Of a stretch of 64,000 bases of DNA, positions 2,688-58,620 are shown piece by piece. Within the stretch, counting starts at the first letter, position 1. Each line of letters opens with the position of its first letter. The DNA is taken from contig OZ255830.1 of assembly GCA_965277685.1 (NCBI GenBank), positions 1,385,367 to 1,449,366 of the forward strand, in the 5' to 3' direction. This stretch comes from Alphaproteobacteria bacterium. GTDB taxonomy: Bacteria; Pseudomonadota; Alphaproteobacteria; GM7ARS4; CBDIDI01. The translations under genes and the position numbers were made by a program. Below the pieces are notes generated by a model. That model was not told the origin of the DNA. It did no database searches and saw nothing but the letters and a program-made list of their open reading frames with translations.

Positions 2688-3326
2688 ATGTCGGCGTGCC
2701 TTTCGCCATCGTTAAATTGGCGGTATAATGAACCGGATATGGTGGAAAAAGATAATGAACAATTGGCCGATCTGGCCGGTAAATTGCTTGATCTATGGCA
2801 GGATCAAGCATCGGCCATGATGTCCGACCCGCGTTCCGCCGTCTTTTTTTTCCAATGGATGTCCGCGATGATGGACGCGCATCAATCCGGCGTGTCTTCC
2901 ACCGATACCAAGCGGCAAGACGCATCCTTGACAGATAAAGGGACGGGACAATGGCAAGAAAAAAAGACTCAAAAAGAAGGGCAAACGCCGAACATCGATC
3001 GGCGGGGGTGGGATCCTTCCGTTTTTCGTCAAGGTTTTGGCTATAATGAATTCCTCAAGGCCTGCAAGGCATGGAACGCCTTTGCGGGAAAAGACGTCGC
3101 CATCCCGGGCGGGGCCTCGGCACAAGGATTGGCCGACGCGTCTGGGCCCGCGACCGCTACCGATGCATCTATTTCCGGCAATGATAACCTGGATGACATC
3201 ACCACTCGCTTGGATTGCCTTGAGAGACGGCTTGATCGTATGGAAAGATCAAAAAAAAGCCGAAGACCTGCGCCGACAACTGCTTCGGTACCCGGTGTCG
3301 GACGGGGGGGCAAAAGCCAAGGATAA
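2688..3326 (+). CDS. putative PHA synthase subunit PhaE-like protein / hypothetical (212 aa)
   Basis: Lies directly upstream of, and overlaps in another frame, a class-III-type phaC, which is the phaE position in phaEC operons. W/Q-rich N-terminus (LLDLWQDQASAMM...FFFQWMSAMMDAHQ) and a coiled-coil C-terminus (LDDITTRLDCLERRLDRMER). No motif-level proof. Confidence 0.35.
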   Translation: MSACLSPSLNWRYNEPDMVEKDNEQLADLAGKLLDLWQDQASAMMSDPRSAVFFFQWMSAMMDAHQSGVSSTDTKRQDASLTDKGTGQWQEKKTQKEGQTPNIDRRGWDPSVFRQGFGYNEFLKACKAWNAFAGKDVAIPGGASAQGLADASGPATATDASISGNDNLDDITTRLDCLERRLDRMERSKKSRRPAPTTASVPGVGRGGKSQG

Positions 3327-5932: not shown

Positions 5933-6655
5933 ATGACAAGAATTGCACTCGTCACCGGCGGCACACGTGGTATAGGAGCCGCTATCGCCAAGGCATTAAA
6001 AGCGGCCGGCTATCGCGTTGCCGCCAATTATCACGGCAATGCCAAAGCGGCACAGGCCTTCCATAAGGAAACGGAAATCCCGGTTTATTCGTGGGACGTA
6101 TCCGATTTTGATGCTTGTGCCAAAGGCGTCAAGCAAGTGGAAGCCGACCTTGGCAAAGTCGAAGTGCTGGTGAACAATGCCGGGATTACCCGTGATATGT
6201 CCATGCACAAAATGACATTGGACGCTTGGAATGCGGTTATCACGACGGATCTTAACTCCGTTTTTTATATGACCCATGCCATTTATCCGGCGATGCGCGA
6301 GGCCGGGTTTGGTCGAATCATCAATATTTCTTCGATCAATGGGCAAAGAGGTCAATTTGGCCAGGTCAATTATGCCGCGGCCAAGGCCGGAATGGTTGGC
6401 TTTACCAAATCCCTCGCTTTGGAAGGTGCGGCCAAGGGCATCACCGCGAATGTGATTGCGCCCGGATATATTATGACCGATATGGTGGCGGCTATGCCGA
6501 AAGAGATTCTGGCTAAAACGGCTACCTATATTCCCGTTCGCCGTCTTGGTGAGGTGGATGAAATCTCTCGCATTGCCGTCTTTCTTGCCGCCGATAATGC
6601 GGGATTTATCACTGGATCGACAATATCGGTAAATGGTGGGCAATACATGATCTGA
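5933..6655 (+). CDS. phaB: acetoacetyl-CoA reductase (SDR family)
   Basis: MTRIALVTGGTRGIGAAIAKAL Rossmann motif. NNAGITRD. YAAAKAG catalytic YxxxK. 240 aa. Follows phaA. Confidence 0.9.
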   Translation: MTRIALVTGGTRGIGAAIAKALKAAGYRVAANYHGNAKAAQAFHKETEIPVYSWDVSDFDACAKGVKQVEADLGKVEVLVNNAGITRDMSMHKMTLDAWNAVITTDLNSVFYMTHAIYPAMREAGFGRIINISSINGQRGQFGQVNYAAAKAGMVGFTKSLALEGAAKGITANVIAPGYIMTDMVAAMPKEILAKTATYIPVRRLGEVDEISRIAVFLAADNAGFITGSTISVNGGQYMI

Positions 6656-51472: not shown

Positions 51473-52240
51473 GTGGGAGGAAAAAGCAAGGTGGCCAATA
51501 TGAAATACGGACATACCGTCAAATCCTTCGATAAGGAACTGCAGTCATTAAGGGATAATATTTACACGATGGGGGAAATGGCCGGTGCGATGTTGGGGGA
51601 GGCCATGGTCGCCGCGTTGGAACGCGATCAAAAAAAATCGACCCACGTTATTCGACGGGACAGCACGGTTGATGATTTGGAAAACGATACATCGATGTTT
51701 GCGGTTCGGCTTCTTGCCCTGCGCCAACCGATGGCCAATGATCTTCGTCAGATCGTCAGCGCGGTCAAGATTGCCAGTGATATCGAGCGCATCGCCGATT
51801 ATGCGACAAGCATTGCCCGGCGTGCCGGATCATTGGATCGAACCAGTCCGATTGCACCGGAAAAACACGTGCGGCGGATGGCCAAAGCGGTGGATATGAC
51901 GTTGCGTGATACGTTGACGGCCTACCGAAGTGGCGATTTTACCCGCAGTTTGGAAATATGGGATCAGGATCGCGAAATCGATGCGATGTATGTCAGTCTG
52001 TTTCGTGAATTGGTGACGTATATGATTGAAGATCCACGTTGCATCGGGATCGGCATTCATCTTCTTTTTATGGCCAAAAACCTCGAGCGGATTGGCGACC
52101 ACGTGACCAATATTGCGGAATCGATGTATTATATTGCCCATGGCAAGCCACTGGTGCGGGAACGTCCATGGCGCGATGAGGAGCTTGGCGAATTCAAGCA
52201 AATCGTTACTTCCGGCAAAAAGCGTGGGCAGAATAAATAG
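51473..52240 (+). CDS. phoU: phosphate signalling complex protein PhoU (start likely GTG 51491 or ATG 51500)
   Basis: Two PhoU repeats (DDLENDTSMFAVRLLALRQPMANDLR and DREIDAMYVSLFREL...ERIGDHVTNIAE). Follows pstB. Confidence 0.9.
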   Translation: MGGKSKVANMKYGHTVKSFDKELQSLRDNIYTMGEMAGAMLGEAMVAALERDQKKSTHVIRRDSTVDDLENDTSMFAVRLLALRQPMANDLRQIVSAVKIASDIERIADYATSIARRAGSLDRTSPIAPEKHVRRMAKAVDMTLRDTLTAYRSGDFTRSLEIWDQDREIDAMYVSLFRELVTYMIEDPRCIGIGIHLLFMAKNLERIGDHVTNIAESMYYIAHGKPLVRERPWRDEELGEFKQIVTSGKKRGQNK

Positions 52241-52287
52241 GGGTTTTTCGGTCTCAACGGGCGATCGCGAATCGGCACCGTGATCGT

Positions 52288-52902
52288 ATGTATAACGTTG
52301 CCCGGAATAATTTTTACGCCAATCGTAAAAACGCCACGATCATGACACCGACCGGCGTTAGCCGTTTTATCTTCGATTTGGTGCGGGATAAAATCACCAA
52401 GGGTGTCGTGATCGATCCGTGTGTTGGCGACGGTTCTTTGCTGAAGCCGTTTGCCGATGATGGGTTTAAGGTTCTTGGTATCGATATCGAGCAACAGGGA
52501 TTTCGCCAAACCCATTGCCGTGATTTTATCGACGTCAAGCAAGGGGAATTTCCCGATCCTGCTTTGGTCGTGGCCAATCCACCGTTTAATATTGATCGCA
52601 AGGTCGGCGAAAAGATCAAGAGCATCTACGGCGCGCGTCCATTGCTGCCCGAGGTATGGTTGCAAAAAATCATTGCGTTGTGGGGATGCACAATTCCCAT
52701 TGTCCTTTTCACACCTTATGGAATGCGGCTTAACCAAACCAAGAAAAGCAAAAGATGGAATAAATTTGTCGATGGCACCTATCCACCGATTGCATCGATT
52801 GTCGCTTTACCCAAGGATGTATACGATAACGTTTTGTTTCATAGCGAGATTCTGATTTTTAATATCAAAGGTCTCGATGCGCATTACTTCTATCACGACT
52901 GA
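52288..52902 (+). CDS. small (204 aa) TaqI/Eco57I-like gamma-class N6-adenine methyltransferase-like protein with no adjacent restriction partner
   Basis: TaqI-type N-terminus (IMTPTGVSRFIFDLV..). Motif I VIDPCVGDGSLL. Motif IV NPPF about 54 aa downstream, the gamma-class order. No target-recognition domain. By eye the GC content is lower than the flanking genes. Confidence 0.5.
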   Translation: MYNVARNNFYANRKNATIMTPTGVSRFIFDLVRDKITKGVVIDPCVGDGSLLKPFADDGFKVLGIDIEQQGFRQTHCRDFIDVKQGEFPDPALVVANPPFNIDRKVGEKIKSIYGARPLLPEVWLQKIIALWGCTIPIVLFTPYGMRLNQTKKSKRWNKFVDGTYPPIASIVALPKDVYDNVLFHSEILIFNIKGLDAHYFYHD

Positions 52903-53007
52903 CGGCATGATTCTTGCGATCACCTTGCCGCGCCGGTGCGTGATTCGTTTATCCGCTTGGGGGCGGACTCTTTCGTCCCCCTCCGGTTCTCTTTAAAAAA
53001 TGGTTCT

Positions 53008-53808: not shown

Positions 53809-53963
53809 ATGATGTGTTCCTGATGGCTGGATTTTCTTGGGGCGGCGGGTAAGACCCCCCATGCGTGCGCGCGGCGCGCAAACGCCAACCCCACAAGCAC
53901 AAGGCACCCGAACCGATGCGCTAGCACCGTATCAAAATGCCTTTCTCCGGCACGGTTGTCAAC

Positions 53964-54112
53964 GATGCGATGGCCGATGTTATCCTAGGGGGGCCGATGT
54001 GATGACCGACGCGATGGGCGATGGGATGACCGATGTTATCCTAGGGGGGGCCGATGTTATCACCGACGCGATGGGCGATGGGATGACCGATGTTATCCTA
54101 GGGGGGGGCGGT
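53964..54112. repeat. ~2.5 tandem copies of a ~60-bp unit (gatgcgatgggcgatgggatgaccgatgttatcctaG(6-8)ccgatgt[gt]at[gc]accgac) with a poly-G tract of 6, 7 and 8 in successive copies
   Basis: Direct reading. Intergenic, between the hupE 5' end and the ABC-2 permease 3' end. Confidence 0.85.
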
Positions 54113-55197: not shown

Positions 55198-56001
55198 ATG
55201 AGGCATCCCACCGTTGATCTTCAGGCCATTTTGATTGACATGGAAGGGTCGATTGTTGAAAGCGAGGAAATTCATCGCCGCGCCTTCAATGCGGCGTTTC
55301 GTGAGTGTGGCATGGCATGGCACTGGGATCGGGCGATTTATAAGCAATTGTTATCCATTGCCGGTGGATTGGAGCGTTTGAAGCACTATATCACCCGGAC
55401 CGCGCCCGATATCATGAAGCGGCCGGATGGGTTCAGCTTTCTTGATTCGATGCATAAGGCGAAGAATATCGCTTACGCCCAACTTGTTGAGCGCGAGGGG
55501 GTTTCCCCGCGCCCCGGGGTCGAGCGTCTTTTGACCGAGGCCCGCCGGCGCGACATTAAACTGGCGGTTGTGACATCGGCAACGCTGGAAACCGTTCACA
55601 CCGTGATCGGCAAGGCCCTTGGCGATGATGCGTTGCAATGGTTTGAAGTGATCGCCGATGGGGGCAAGGTGCCCGCCAAAAAACCCGCGCCCGATATCTA
55701 TATTTGGGCAACCGAAGAAATGGGCGTGCCGGTTTCGGCCTGTCTTTCCTTTGAAGACACGCCGCGCGGGGTAAAAGGGTCGATGGCCGCCGGCGTTCCG
55801 GCCGTGGCAACCGTTTCATCCTATACCTATGATGAGGACTTCGACGGCGCCTTGGCGGTGATATCCCATCTCGGCAATCCGGATCAGCCGTTTAAAATGC
55901 TGGCCGGATCGGCTTTCGGTGCCGACTATGTGACGGTTGATTTATTGCGTAAATGGCACCGTTCGGCAAAGCCGACGGTCGTGCGTGGCGGGTGTCGTTA
56001 G
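55198..56001 (+). CDS. HAD-superfamily hydrolase, CbbY-like
   Basis: HAD motif I ILIDMEGSIVESE. Motif II/III region (VVTSATL...K...FEDT). CbbY-like overall pattern. Start chosen at MRHPTVDLQAIL. Confidence 0.7.
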   Translation: MRHPTVDLQAILIDMEGSIVESEEIHRRAFNAAFRECGMAWHWDRAIYKQLLSIAGGLERLKHYITRTAPDIMKRPDGFSFLDSMHKAKNIAYAQLVEREGVSPRPGVERLLTEARRRDIKLAVVTSATLETVHTVIGKALGDDALQWFEVIADGGKVPAKKPAPDIYIWATEEMGVPVSACLSFEDTPRGVKGSMAAGVPAVATVSSYTYDEDFDGALAVISHLGNPDQPFKMLAGSAFGADYVTVDLLRKWHRSAKPTVVRGGCR

Positions 56002-56009
56002 CGATTGGT

Positions 56010-58352
56010 ATGAAAAGGCACTATCGGACGATGACGGCGATCGCCGCGGCCGCTTTTTTGGCTTTTTGCCAAATCTTTTTTCCTTTATCACTCTCGGCCG
56101 GAAATATCGGGGATGCGTACGGGGATGTATCGTCGGTCTCGCTGATTGCGGCAAGCGAAGGGATTGCCCCGGGGCAAAAACGGGTTCTGGCCGGATTGCG
56201 GATAACCCTTGGGCCGGGATGGAAAACATACTGGCGCGCACCGGGGGATGCGGGGTTTGCTCTTTCTGCCAAGTGGACCGATAACGATAATATTCGGGAT
56301 ATCACGATCGAATGGCCGGCACCGCGTCGCTACAGCGAATACGGGTTGGAAACAATCGGCTATGAAAAAGATGTGACCCTTCCCGTAAAACTGACTCTGG
56401 CCGATCCGGGTCGGGCCGCGACGATCGGCGCCACCGTCGATTACCTGGTGTGCAAGGATGTGTGCATACCGAAATCGGCCCCCGTTTTTTTATCCTTACC
56501 GGCACTGGCCGCGCCGATGCCATCGCCGATGGCTCCGATTATTGAAGCCGCCCTCGATCGGGTGCCGCCGATGGCATCGGATGATTTGCGGATTGAAAAA
56601 GCACTCTGGCAAGCGGATGGGGTGCTGGAAATCGACGTGTCAAGCACGACGGCCATGGGTTCCCTTGATGCCTTTATCGAAGATGCCGGTGATATCTCTT
56701 TTCCGGCTCCGCAGATACGCTTTATGCATGATGGGTATCGGGCGTTGCTTCGCTTTCAGGCAAGGAAACCGGTGCAATCTTCCCCGCTTGGCCGTGTGAT
56801 AAGGGTGACTGTTGTCGATATGCCGGGCCAAGCGGATCGATCCGATCTTGATGCGGATCGCTTGCAATCGGTGGCCTGGCGCAGTGCTTCGGATATGGTC
56901 ACCGTGACCGGGACACCCGTTCGCGGTGGGGGCGGATTCCACCCGACGATGACGTTTTCCGGAATTTTATGGATGATGTTGCTGGCGGTCATCGGGGGTT
57001 TGATCCTTAACGTCATGCCGTGTGTTTTGCCGGTGTTATCGCTGAAATTGATGACGGTCGTTAACGCCCAACAAAGAAAAGGGCAAAGAGAGGGGCAAAG
57101 GGAAAGACCAAGGGACAGACAGGAAGAAAAGGATGGCGGGGACGAGAAAGCATGTGAGGGGGAGAAAGCCGCGCGTCCCGCAATGCATTCCGGCGGCGTG
57201 GCAATATGGACTAAATCCCTTTTTTCGAGGGGCGAGAAAGCCGCGCGTCCCGCGATCCATTCCGATGCCGTGGCAATACGGACTAAATTCCTTTTTTCGG
57301 TGGCGGGAATTTTGGTTTCTTTCATGCTTTTGGCATTGGCCCTGATTGTCTTTCGCGCGGCCGGATATGCCGTGGGTTGGGGGTTCCATTTCCAGTCGCC
57401 GGTATTCCTCGCTTTGATGGGGGCAATGATGACGATCTTTGCTTCATCGATTATTTTGGATGCGCCATTGCATTTGCCCGGATGGCTTTCCCAACGGCTT
57501 TCCCGCCATCCTGCCGATGGGAATGATCGGCACGGCGGGGCATTTATCCAGGGTATGTTCGCCGTGGCATTGGCAACCCCTTGTTCGGCACCGGTTATCG
57601 GAACCGTGGCCGGATTCGCTTTATCCCGCGGCGCGATTGATATTCTTTTGATCTTCCAAGCGATGGCATGGGGTTTTGCTTTGCCGTGGTTGGTGATTGC
57701 CGCGTTTCCGCGTTTGATTTTTCTATTGCCGAAACCGGGCCGATGGATGCGGGCGATACAGTGGGGTTTGGCCGTTGCATTGTTGTTGACGGTGGTATGG
57801 TTGATTTTTGTGATCATTGCCCAGCGAGGCGGCGGTGTTGCGGCCGTGGTCGCGCTGGGATGTGTGTTTCTCTTTTTCTTGCCGGTGCTGGTGCGCCGTT
57901 ATGTTTATGCCTTGATGATCGCGATTGTGGTGGCCATCGGCGCGGTGCCCTTTGTCCATGATGGGGCTCAAGATGGGCAAAAACGGGTGGCGGCAGCCGG
58001 CATTTGGTCGCCCCTTGATCCGGAACGAATCCCAATTTTAGTCGATCAAGGGCGCGTCGTTCTGGTCGATGTTACTGCCGATTGGTGCATCACGTGTCAA
58101 ATCAATCATCTTTTGGTTCTGGATCGGGATGCAACCCGGCGCATGCTTGATGATTTTAATGTCGTTGCCATGCGCGGTGACTGGACTTTGCCCGATGATC
58201 AAATTGCCGCTTTTCTTGCCGGGTTTCAGCGCTATGGGGTACCATTCAACGCCGTCTACGGACCCGGGGCAAAGGATGGCATTGTTTTGTCGGAAATCCT
58301 GGATCAAGACGATTTGCATGCGGCATTGGTCGCTGCATCAAGGCCAAAATAA
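56010..58352 (+). CDS. dsbD: thiol:disulfide interchange protein DsbD family (N-terminal periplasmic domain, TM core with two Cys, C-terminal thioredoxin CxxC)
   Basis: TM Cys pair (VMPCVLPVLSL and ATPCSAPVIG). C-terminal thioredoxin VDVTADWCITCQIN. Charged ~70-aa insertion containing a 69/71-bp tandem duplication in the first cytoplasmic loop. Confidence 0.8.
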   Translation: MKRHYRTMTAIAAAAFLAFCQIFFPLSLSAGNIGDAYGDVSSVSLIAASEGIAPGQKRVLAGLRITLGPGWKTYWRAPGDAGFALSAKWTDNDNIRDITIEWPAPRRYSEYGLETIGYEKDVTLPVKLTLADPGRAATIGATVDYLVCKDVCIPKSAPVFLSLPALAAPMPSPMAPIIEAALDRVPPMASDDLRIEKALWQADGVLEIDVSSTTAMGSLDAFIEDAGDISFPAPQIRFMHDGYRALLRFQARKPVQSSPLGRVIRVTVVDMPGQADRSDLDADRLQSVAWRSASDMVTVTGTPVRGGGGFHPTMTFSGILWMMLLAVIGGLILNVMPCVLPVLSLKLMTVVNAQQRKGQREGQRERPRDRQEEKDGGDEKACEGEKAARPAMHSGGVAIWTKSLFSRGEKAARPAIHSDAVAIRTKFLFSVAGILVSFMLLALALIVFRAAGYAVGWGFHFQSPVFLALMGAMMTIFASSIILDAPLHLPGWLSQRLSRHPADGNDRHGGAFIQGMFAVALATPCSAPVIGTVAGFALSRGAIDILLIFQAMAWGFALPWLVIAAFPRLIFLLPKPGRWMRAIQWGLAVALLLTVVWLIFVIIAQRGGGVAAVVALGCVFLFFLPVLVRRYVYALMIAIVVAIGAVPFVHDGAQDGQKRVAAAGIWSPLDPERIPILVDQGRVVLVDVTADWCITCQINHLLVLDRDATRRMLDDFNVVAMRGDWTLPDDQIAAFLAGFQRYGVPFNAVYGPGAKDGIVLSEILDQDDLHAALVAASRPK
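57159..57300 (+). repeat. in-frame ~70-bp tandem duplication inside dsbD (encodes EGEKAARPAMHSGGVAIWTKSLFSRG / EKAARPAIHSDAVAIRTKFLFS)
   Basis: gagaaagccgcgcgtcccgc[a/g]at[g/c]cattccg[gc]...gtggcaata[tc]ggactaaat[c/t]cc(t)tttttcg repeated. Confidence 0.85.
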
Positions 58353-58620
58353 TCCATCGGCATGGGTCGCTGCATCACGGCCAAAATAATCCATCGGCAT
58401 GGGTCGCTGCATCACGGCCAAAATAATCCATTGGCATTGGTCGCGGTCGTTATGGCGCGGCTAAGATTCCGCCCGGGTTGCCCCGGGATGACGTGCAAGG
58501 TTGCGTCCGGATGCCCCGAAATGGCTCCAAAATTGCATCAAGGAAATTGCGCTGGGATGCCCTGAAATAGCCCCGGAATTGCATCAAGGAAATTGCATCG
58601 AGAGAATTGCGGGGCCGGGA
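58323..58620. repeat. two adjacent tandem arrays after dsbD: ~3 copies of a ~40-bp unit containing the dsbD stop (cggccaaaaTAAtccatcggcatgggtcgctgcatca), then 2 copies of gaaat[ga]gc[tc]cc[ag][ag]aattgcatcaaggaaattgc
   Basis: Direct reading. The first unit is the dsbD 3' end (...AASRPK*). Confidence 0.85.

Follow-up and report, generated by a model that had tools for sequence, protein, structure and literature searches.

The stretch of DNA analysed here (the window) comprises 64,000 nucleotides of contig OZ255830.1, from the alphaproteobacterial assembly GCA_965277685.1. Our subject is a short gene, located between phoU and hupE, for a compact gamma-type N6-adenine DNA methyltransferase. The enzyme is a solitary type II methylase of a known kind; elsewhere, its family forms an EcoRI-like restriction-modification (R-M) system carried by a transposon. 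Pfam searches place pstC, pstA, pstB and phoU upstream of the gene, on the same strand. Downstream is a HupE/UreJ gene, on the opposite strand and converging, followed by genes for an ABC-2 permease and then a HAD hydrolase. The pstC-pstA-pstB-phoU and hupE flanks are those named in a preliminary description of the locus, made from the window alone. None of the immediate neighbours encodes a restriction-modification protein according to Pfam.

The features of the gene and its spacers are listed in Table 1. The 204-residue open reading frame (ORF) has the motifs where the preliminary description put them, and alignment supports its reading of a gamma-class order. Thus, TP (residues 20-21), DPCVGDGSLL (residues 43-52) and NPPF (residues 97-100) correspond to motifs X, I and IV. 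The NPPF sequence begins 54 residues past D43, and 104 residues remain after it. The protein matches the Pfam family N6_Mtase (PF02384) at 31.5 bits, above the gathering cut-off (20.4 bits), and the best matching stretch is residues 16-52. PADLOC ('Type II methyltransferase') and PHROGs ('DNA methyltransferase') gave weak matches. No NCBIfam model was matched above noise.

Table 1. The methyltransferase gene, its motifs and its flanking spacers. Positions are those of the window; pLDDT, predicted local distance difference test score; SAM, S-adenosylmethionine.
Feature	Position	Strand	Details
Complete ORF; compact gamma-type N6-adenine DNA methyltransferase, solitary	52288..52902	+	ATG start, 204 aa + stop
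N-terminal tail, residues 1-16 (MYNVARNNFYANRKNA)	52288..52335	+	M1, Y2, R6, N7, F9 and K14 invariant; pLDDT <50
Motif X-like helix TPTGVSRFIFDLV, before motif I as in gamma-class enzymes	52345..52383	+	T20 and P21 invariant
Motif I, SAM-binding loop VIDPCVGDGSLL, V41-L52	52408..52443	+	D43, P44, C45, G47, G49, L51 and L52 invariant
Motif IV, catalytic NPPF, after strand beta-4	52576..52587	+	N97, P98, P99 and F100 invariant
Family-specific loop P143-W157 (PYGMRLNQTKKSKRW) after strand beta-5	52714..52758	+	Invariant columns in the alignment: P143, Y144, G145, R147, L148, N149, Q150, S154, R156 and W157; pLDDT lower at 141-150
Promoter-like site within the phoU 3' end	52103-52132	+	Predicted by consensus scan
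Spacer from phoU stop to methyltransferase start, 47 bp	52241..52287	+	Without terminator-like hairpin on the + strand (consensus scan)
Spacer between methyltransferase gene and hupE, 105 bp, converging genes	52903..53007	.	Terminator-like hairpins at 52929-52942 and 52952-52967

An AlphaFold 2 model of the protein was obtained with a pLDDT of 85.7 and a predicted template modelling score of 0.85. Foldseek returned lmo1582, M.TaqI and HsdM as its top matches. The catalytic-domain fold superimposes on M.TaqI, MmeI or HsdM. In structure, the protein comes closest to catalytic domains that belong to far larger enzymes, namely MmeI, BsaXI, PglX and HsdM, and between 172 and 183 of the 204 residues align with such domains. 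Similarity to the large enzymes of solved structure is marginal at the sequence level (best E = 0.0075). Hence, by profile, motif order and fold, the window protein belongs to the same gamma class as M.TaqI, MmeI and HsdM-type (PF02384) enzymes, with which it shares 14-20% identity. However, those enzymes have 380-1500 residues and possess a recognition domain or an HsdS subunit, whereas the window protein consists of the catalytic fold only. A separate C-terminal target-recognition domain is absent from the 204-residue protein, as the preliminary description had noticed.

The short length is a property of the family. We found at least 338 significant homologues among 5.8 billion proteins (top E = 1e-89). 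As a set, the homologues have about 203-240 residues and 99-100% coverage. For the best 120 of them the length is 203-264 residues, the query coverage 98-100% and the identity 57-68%. All of the homologues listed contain PF02384, except three. An alignment of 55 homologues has 61 invariant columns, running from M1-Y2 through H199-Y200-F201, and a C-terminal HYFY is conserved. The invariant blocks are R6, N7, F9 and K14 of the tail, motif I, NPPFN, RPLLPE-W, PYG-RLNQ--S-RW, LPK and FHSE. The window protein keeps all 61 invariant residues. Searching 1.84 billion cluster representatives with a profile recovered 638 clusters (50% identity) at E <= 1e-3, of which 117 were at E <= 1e-30; nearly all have 180-250 residues. 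The 204-residue length is therefore native to a large family and not the result of truncation.

The distribution of the family was determined by scanning one genome per GTDB species, which yielded 78 loci with a family methyltransferase (loci are cited below by their L numbers). The family is patchy over more than 10 phyla, at about 60% identity. Carriers include Alpha- and Gammaproteobacteria, Bdellovibrionales, Spirochaetia/Entomospira, Chloroflexota, Bryobacterales, Latescibacterota, Nitrospirales, Myxococcales and Vampirovibrionales. Many lineages of the candidate phyla radiation (CPR), one Mycoplasmataceae metagenome-assembled genome (MAG) and 'Candidatus Phytoplasma australiense' (12 copies) also carry it. 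The loci nearest the window protein are mostly nuclease-linked and alphaproteobacterial (L056 and L057, 68%; L080, 67%; L004 and L009, 65%). The exception is L075, a partial copy 68% identical to the window protein and without a nuclease. Many carriers are small-genome symbionts, parasites or predators (sponge-associated Porisulfidus and Poriferihabitaceae, CPR, Bdellovibrionales, Entomospira and phytoplasma), a trend that may reflect sampling bias of MAG collections.

All-against-all clustering of the ORFs around these genes identified one recurrent neighbour. It encodes a protein of 230-249 residues, is co-oriented with the methyltransferase gene and either begins at the stop codon of that gene or overlaps it; in nuclease-linked loci the two reading frames usually overlap. 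The neighbour belongs to the EcoRI endonuclease family (PF02963, 43-61 bits against a gathering cut-off of 22; EcoRI in the PDB, E = 3e-7). Searches with tblastn found a full-length nuclease in 30 of the 78 loci, partial sequence only in 11 (a contig end truncates two of these) and none in 37. In relatives that have the nuclease, it is always adjacent to the methyltransferase. When aligned with EcoRI, the partner keeps P90-D91, E111, K113, Q115, G140-N141-A142, E144-R145 and K148-N149. In EcoRI, Asn141, Ala142 and Arg145 contact the central AATT (Pingoud et al., PMC4081073).

The resemblance to the EcoRI system has limits. The partner nuclease shares the catalytic and AATT-contact residues of EcoRI, and both systems are compact two-gene operons. 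However, the EcoRI order is nuclease then methylase (R-M), the family order is methylase then nuclease (M-R), and the window has no nuclease. M.EcoRI was considered as a homologue of the window protein and rejected. It has 326 residues and belongs to PF13651, which the window protein does not match; the likeness is confined to the surroundings of NPPF (BLASTP E = 0.033 over 77 residues; hhalign probability 10%). Similarly, a Paracoccus plasmid encodes another EcoRI-family nuclease together with a D12-class methylase, and kinship of that methylase to the window family was also rejected. Hence, EcoRI-type nucleases combine with unrelated methylases.

Several loci depart from the usual pairing. 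In L056 (~6110-6135), L057 (~3000-3030), L080 (~6255-6265) and L081 (~6400-6410), homopolymers (G10-14, C10 and G9) break the methyltransferase frame. The breaks fall at three different positions in the gene, and the downstream endonuclease is intact. They could be phase-variable switches or homopolymer errors of long-read sequencing. If they are real, it would have to be explained how the nuclease can be present without its methylase. In L003 (8001-9361; the same as L010, from Paracoccaceae MAG OY729418.1), a gene for an AlkB-like 2-oxoglutarate- and Fe(II)-dependent oxygenase (PF13532, 179 bits) replaces the endonuclease gene after the methyltransferase. The locus lies in an island rich in toxin-antitoxin genes and insertion sequence (IS) elements, with a disrupted hsdM. 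In L133 (6001-8392; IMG/VR UViG_2721755262_000001), the reading frame of a short methyltransferase with 45% identity extends past the start of the gene for a GmrSD type IV restriction enzyme. This contig is phage-like, having weak matches to tail-fibre and holin domains upstream; the partner differs and the methyltransferase family is the same.

We also found signs of mobility in the relatives. An IS1595/ISXO2-type DDE transposase (PF12762 plus zinc ribbon) is encoded upstream, on the same strand, in at least seven loci: L004, L016, L017, L040, L046, L074 and L080. In most of these loci, the transposase gene ends a few bases before the methyltransferase gene; remnants are present in L009, L039 and L048. 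L016 and L017 (4962-7551 in both) derive from one Bryobacterales chromosome (MAG OZ244625.1), which bears two 100% identical copies of a 2,590-bp transposase-methylase-nuclease (Tnp-M-R) unit. Both units have perfect 27-bp terminal inverted repeats (GGGAATTATATACGAAAGTGGCGAAAA). The target duplications, of 8 bp each, differ between the copies (AAACGGAT in one, CTGATTAT in the other). Identical units with inverted repeats, each with its own 8-bp duplication, are the signature of transposition by the Tnp-M-R element. Earlier work had already described R-M units that have inverted repeats and duplications of 8 bp (Furuta et al. 2010, PMC2853133, citing Siguier et al. 2009). The relatives share terminal inverted repeats, the 8-bp duplication, a transposase and M plus R cargo with IS1595-family elements that bear passenger genes. 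L016 and L017 show all three hallmarks of such elements; the window lacks both a transposase and matching inverted repeats. No third gene that might be a candidate specificity subunit is present inside the 2.59-kb unit. The preliminary description missed the links to an EcoRI-like nuclease and an IS1595-type transposase because neither is visible from the window alone.

Other vehicles were also encountered. The viral contig L132 carries an M plus R pair. The only matches in a phage collection were short, 31%-identical methylases of the SUP05 podophage Lau218, and a plasmid collection gave a single weak, partial match to the methyltransferase. The phytoplasma member of the family is the 'CHPmethylase' associated with potential mobile units (PMUs), which has 209 or 225 residues, is assigned to Pfam02384, occurs in multiple copies and has no known role (PMC3750655). 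The 'CHPmethylase' of 'Candidatus Phytoplasma australiense' is 53-54% identical to the window protein. Its copies sit in PMUs, whereas the window copy is single and among housekeeping genes. A nuclease follows only 1 of the 12 phytoplasma copies retrieved (L061).

The family thus shows a series of states, from Tnp-M-R through M-R and M with nuclease fragments to M alone. The 30 full, 11 partial and 37 absent nucleases are a decay series, leading from a complete R-M system to a solitary methylase.

The window copy shows the last of these states, M alone. Searches of the whole window with tblastn and six restriction endonuclease queries detected no EcoRI-like endonuclease (best E = 7.7, away from the locus). 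The window contains no second methyltransferase copy and no transposase match at E <= 1, and the inverted repeats of the L016 transposon are unmatched anywhere in it. The gene is accordingly as solitary as first described, and the suggestion of an orphan DNA methyltransferase fits an intact gene with no nuclease in 64 kb. The 105-bp spacer before hupE is where relatives have the endonuclease gene; no remnant was found there, only the terminator-like hairpins. The two arms of an imperfect inverted repeat (52273-52293 and 52910-52930, 21 nt, 76% complementary, core CGGCAnnGTGATCG) enclose the ORF almost exactly. We rejected this repeat as a transposon end; it is unlike transposon ends, and 28 other chance pairs in the same 1.4 kb are at least as strong.

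The base composition of the gene is informative about its age at the locus. At 45.9%, its GC content is the lowest among the 38 long ORFs of the window (mean 53.9%, z = -3.2), as had been judged by eye. GC at third codon positions (GC3) is 52.9%, the mean for the same ORFs being 58.0% (z = -1.2), and the residues K, N, I, F and Y are abundant in the protein family. Since GC3 is near normal, the low GC comes mostly from amino-acid composition and not from foreign codon usage, and any horizontal acquisition was therefore not recent. The single-gene horizontal insertion proposed earlier is, on this evidence, upheld as regards a horizontally mobile family and weakened as regards a recent event. 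The related proposal that the gene interrupts a conserved phoU-hupE neighbourhood was not confirmed. Among 47 metagenomic phoU loci (PhoU identity <=51%), none has hupE or the methyltransferase gene adjacent to phoU, and no recorded contig was retrieved with the exact window protein. Because the 47-bp spacer is free of terminator-like hairpins, read-through from pst-phoU is possible, and the methyltransferase gene may be transcribed in this way.

Three tandem repeats lie beyond the locus. A 57-bp repeat (53963-54107; 2.6 copies, 94% match) is upstream of hupE, in the spacer toward the 3' end of the ABC-2 permease gene. A 72-bp tandem duplication (57156-57299) within a 799-residue ORF (55953-58352) doubles the peptide segment GEKAARPA-H-...-K-LFS. 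A 37-bp repeat of 3.4 copies (58321-58444) runs across the 3' end and stop codon of the same ORF.

Solitary copies can persist. In four diverged Puniceispirillales-type MAGs, a solitary methyltransferase gene lies amid shared housekeeping genes. These copies are intact and 79-93% identical within close pairs. The gene is near common genes for an RpoH-like sigma factor and a pseudouridine synthase, and at two loci it is downstream of common phosphoglucomutase and HisS-type genes. The solitary loci of this type are L019, L022, L028, L031, L077 and L078, with neighbours that vary by locus. The pattern suggests vertical retention of the orphan methyltransferase in a Puniceispirillales-type lineage. 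Dam is an alpha-class and CcrM a beta-class enzyme; both are conserved across clades and have known regulatory roles. The window methyltransferase resembles them in being intact and without a cognate nuclease in the visible region, and its family is syntenically retained in some lineages. The points of difference are the enzyme class and the clade-wide conservation and regulatory roles, which are established for Dam and CcrM.

We consider it likely that the gene encodes a complete, single-domain, SAM-dependent N6-adenine DNA methyltransferase, that its family provides the modification subunit to type IIP systems in which the nuclease is of the EcoRI family and an IS1595-type element is the carrier, and that the enzyme is an orphan here. 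The reading frame is unbroken and has all of the residues that are invariant in the family; because of this, the enzyme is probably functional. Its target probably has an AATT core, given that the partner nuclease keeps the residues by which EcoRI contacts AATT. In the mechanism that we envisage, the methyltransferase would act on both strands of a palindrome with an AATT core, flipping out an adenine and methylating it, with the NPPF pocket performing catalysis. In the absence of a domain dedicated to recognition, the target would be read by the N-terminal tail (residues 1-16) and by family-specific loops at about 143-157 and 174-187, perhaps in a dimer. The tail is a candidate DNA-contact element, and loop 143-157 a candidate target-recognition loop inside the catalytic domain.

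As regards history, the M-R unit of the family is passenger cargo of an IS1595-family transposon and is present also on viral contigs and in phytoplasma mobile units. The window copy may have lost the endonuclease and transposase after acquisition, or the methylase may have arrived alone. Arrival as an M-R or Tnp-M-R unit, with subsequent loss of the nuclease and transposase, would be the most economical history. The enzyme may now serve in residual self-protection, guard against a new invasion by the same R-M unit or set epigenetic marks.

Some observations weigh against this reading. Activity, substrate and motif are all matters of inference. Positions aligned with R200 and R203 of EcoRI are unconserved in the partner nuclease, and an EcoRI arm segment is deleted. 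Hence, the site need not be GAATTC and may differ from it in the outer bases. We also measured site avoidance as observed/expected ratios for all 4-bp palindromes and NAATTN in 349 kb of nuclease loci, 303 kb of methylase-only loci and the window. The ratio for AATT was 0.92-0.97 in all three sets; there is no AATT-type avoidance with or without a nuclease. This measure therefore speaks neither for nor against the predicted AATT core and lends it no independent support. Orphan status was read from 64 kb of a roughly 1.6-Mb genome, so an unlinked endonuclease may lie elsewhere. Finally, no close relatives of the window genome were found with the window protein or its PhoU, so the order of loss and gain between phoU and hupE is a proposed one.

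Published enzymes offer few points of comparison. A literature search found no characterised AATT, CAATTG or RAATTY methylase of about 205 residues. M.MunI belongs to a circularly permuted clade (PMC4738411). M.Tsp509I has been characterised as A(m6A)TT (PMC3287169) and may or may not be related to the window family.

The best of the competing explanations is that the enzyme is an adenine methyltransferase of relaxed or no specificity, in the manner of M.EcoGII, which modifies most adenines or a very short motif and so gives blanket protection, including against the EcoRI-like partner. Such an enzyme would still protect against the linked nuclease. The missing recognition domain, with about 180 of 204 residues given over to the catalytic fold, accords with this idea, as does carriage on mobile units, viral contigs and phytoplasma PMUs, all of which would stand to gain from broad anti-restriction. 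Conversely, the 57-68% identity across phyla extends over the full length, surface loops and N-terminal tail included. This conservation fits a fixed, specific DNA interface shared with the nuclease, whose AATT-reading residues are also invariant. Moreover, heavy genome-wide methylation would be costly for a chromosomal orphan, and there is no similarity to M.EcoGII-type (beta-class) enzymes. We regard a non-specific enzyme as unlikely.

Slightly less likely again is an inactive relic, left over from R-M decay, undisrupted so far and with no current function. The full decay series in the family is what this explanation expects, and upstream of the gene neither a strong promoter nor a Shine-Dalgarno sequence stands out. 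However, no invariant residue has been lost from the intact frame, the near-average GC3 implies long residence without disruption, and orphan copies are intact in diverged syntenic genomes.

Methylation of RNA or protein, by an NPPY/NPPF-type enzyme of the RsmD, PrmC or METTL5 kind that merely resembles DNA methylases, is very improbable. The rRNA, tRNA and protein NPPY methyltransferases (RsmD, PrmC, TrmN6 and METTL5) resemble the window protein in structure only. The Pfam match is to N6_Mtase, and no NCBIfam model for an rRNA or protein methyltransferase matches. Furthermore, the gene forms an operon with an EcoRI-family nuclease, directly after it, in 30 of the 78 loci, and the distribution is patchy, multi-copy and transposon-borne, not universal and single-copy. 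The non-DNA substrate raised in the preliminary description is unlikely for the same reasons. Last, and least probable of all, derivation by truncation from a larger enzyme (type I HsdM, type IIG or BREX PglX, the last two also raised there) would account for the best structural matches, and is effectively refuted by a start, stop and length that are uniform across hundreds of homologues and by the marginal similarity to large enzymes of solved structure.

A further proposal is offered tentatively and is less probable than not. The family may be among the smallest sequence-specific DNA methyltransferases, reading a palindrome via a disordered, invariant tail and loops of the catalytic fold, possibly as a dimer. 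If so, the repeated survival of orphans here, in Puniceispirillales-type genomes and in phytoplasma mobile units might be owed to selection for a task other than restriction, for instance epigenetic control or a block on renewed invasion by the same mobile R-M unit.

We found no experimental characterisation of the family in the literature, and it has no close solved structure and no NCBIfam model. The sole paper found to describe it is the phytoplasma study, where it has only the name 'CHPmethylase' (PMC3750655). With the present assignment, an unexplained methylase without a recognition domain becomes an ordinary orphan methylase, for which a testable N6-methyladenine motif with an AATT core is predicted. 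The main curiosity of the enzyme is its minimal size. The Tnp-M-R unit of its relatives is a clean case of an R-M system as IS cargo, and the family provides a minimal scaffold for understanding how a bare catalytic domain recognises DNA.
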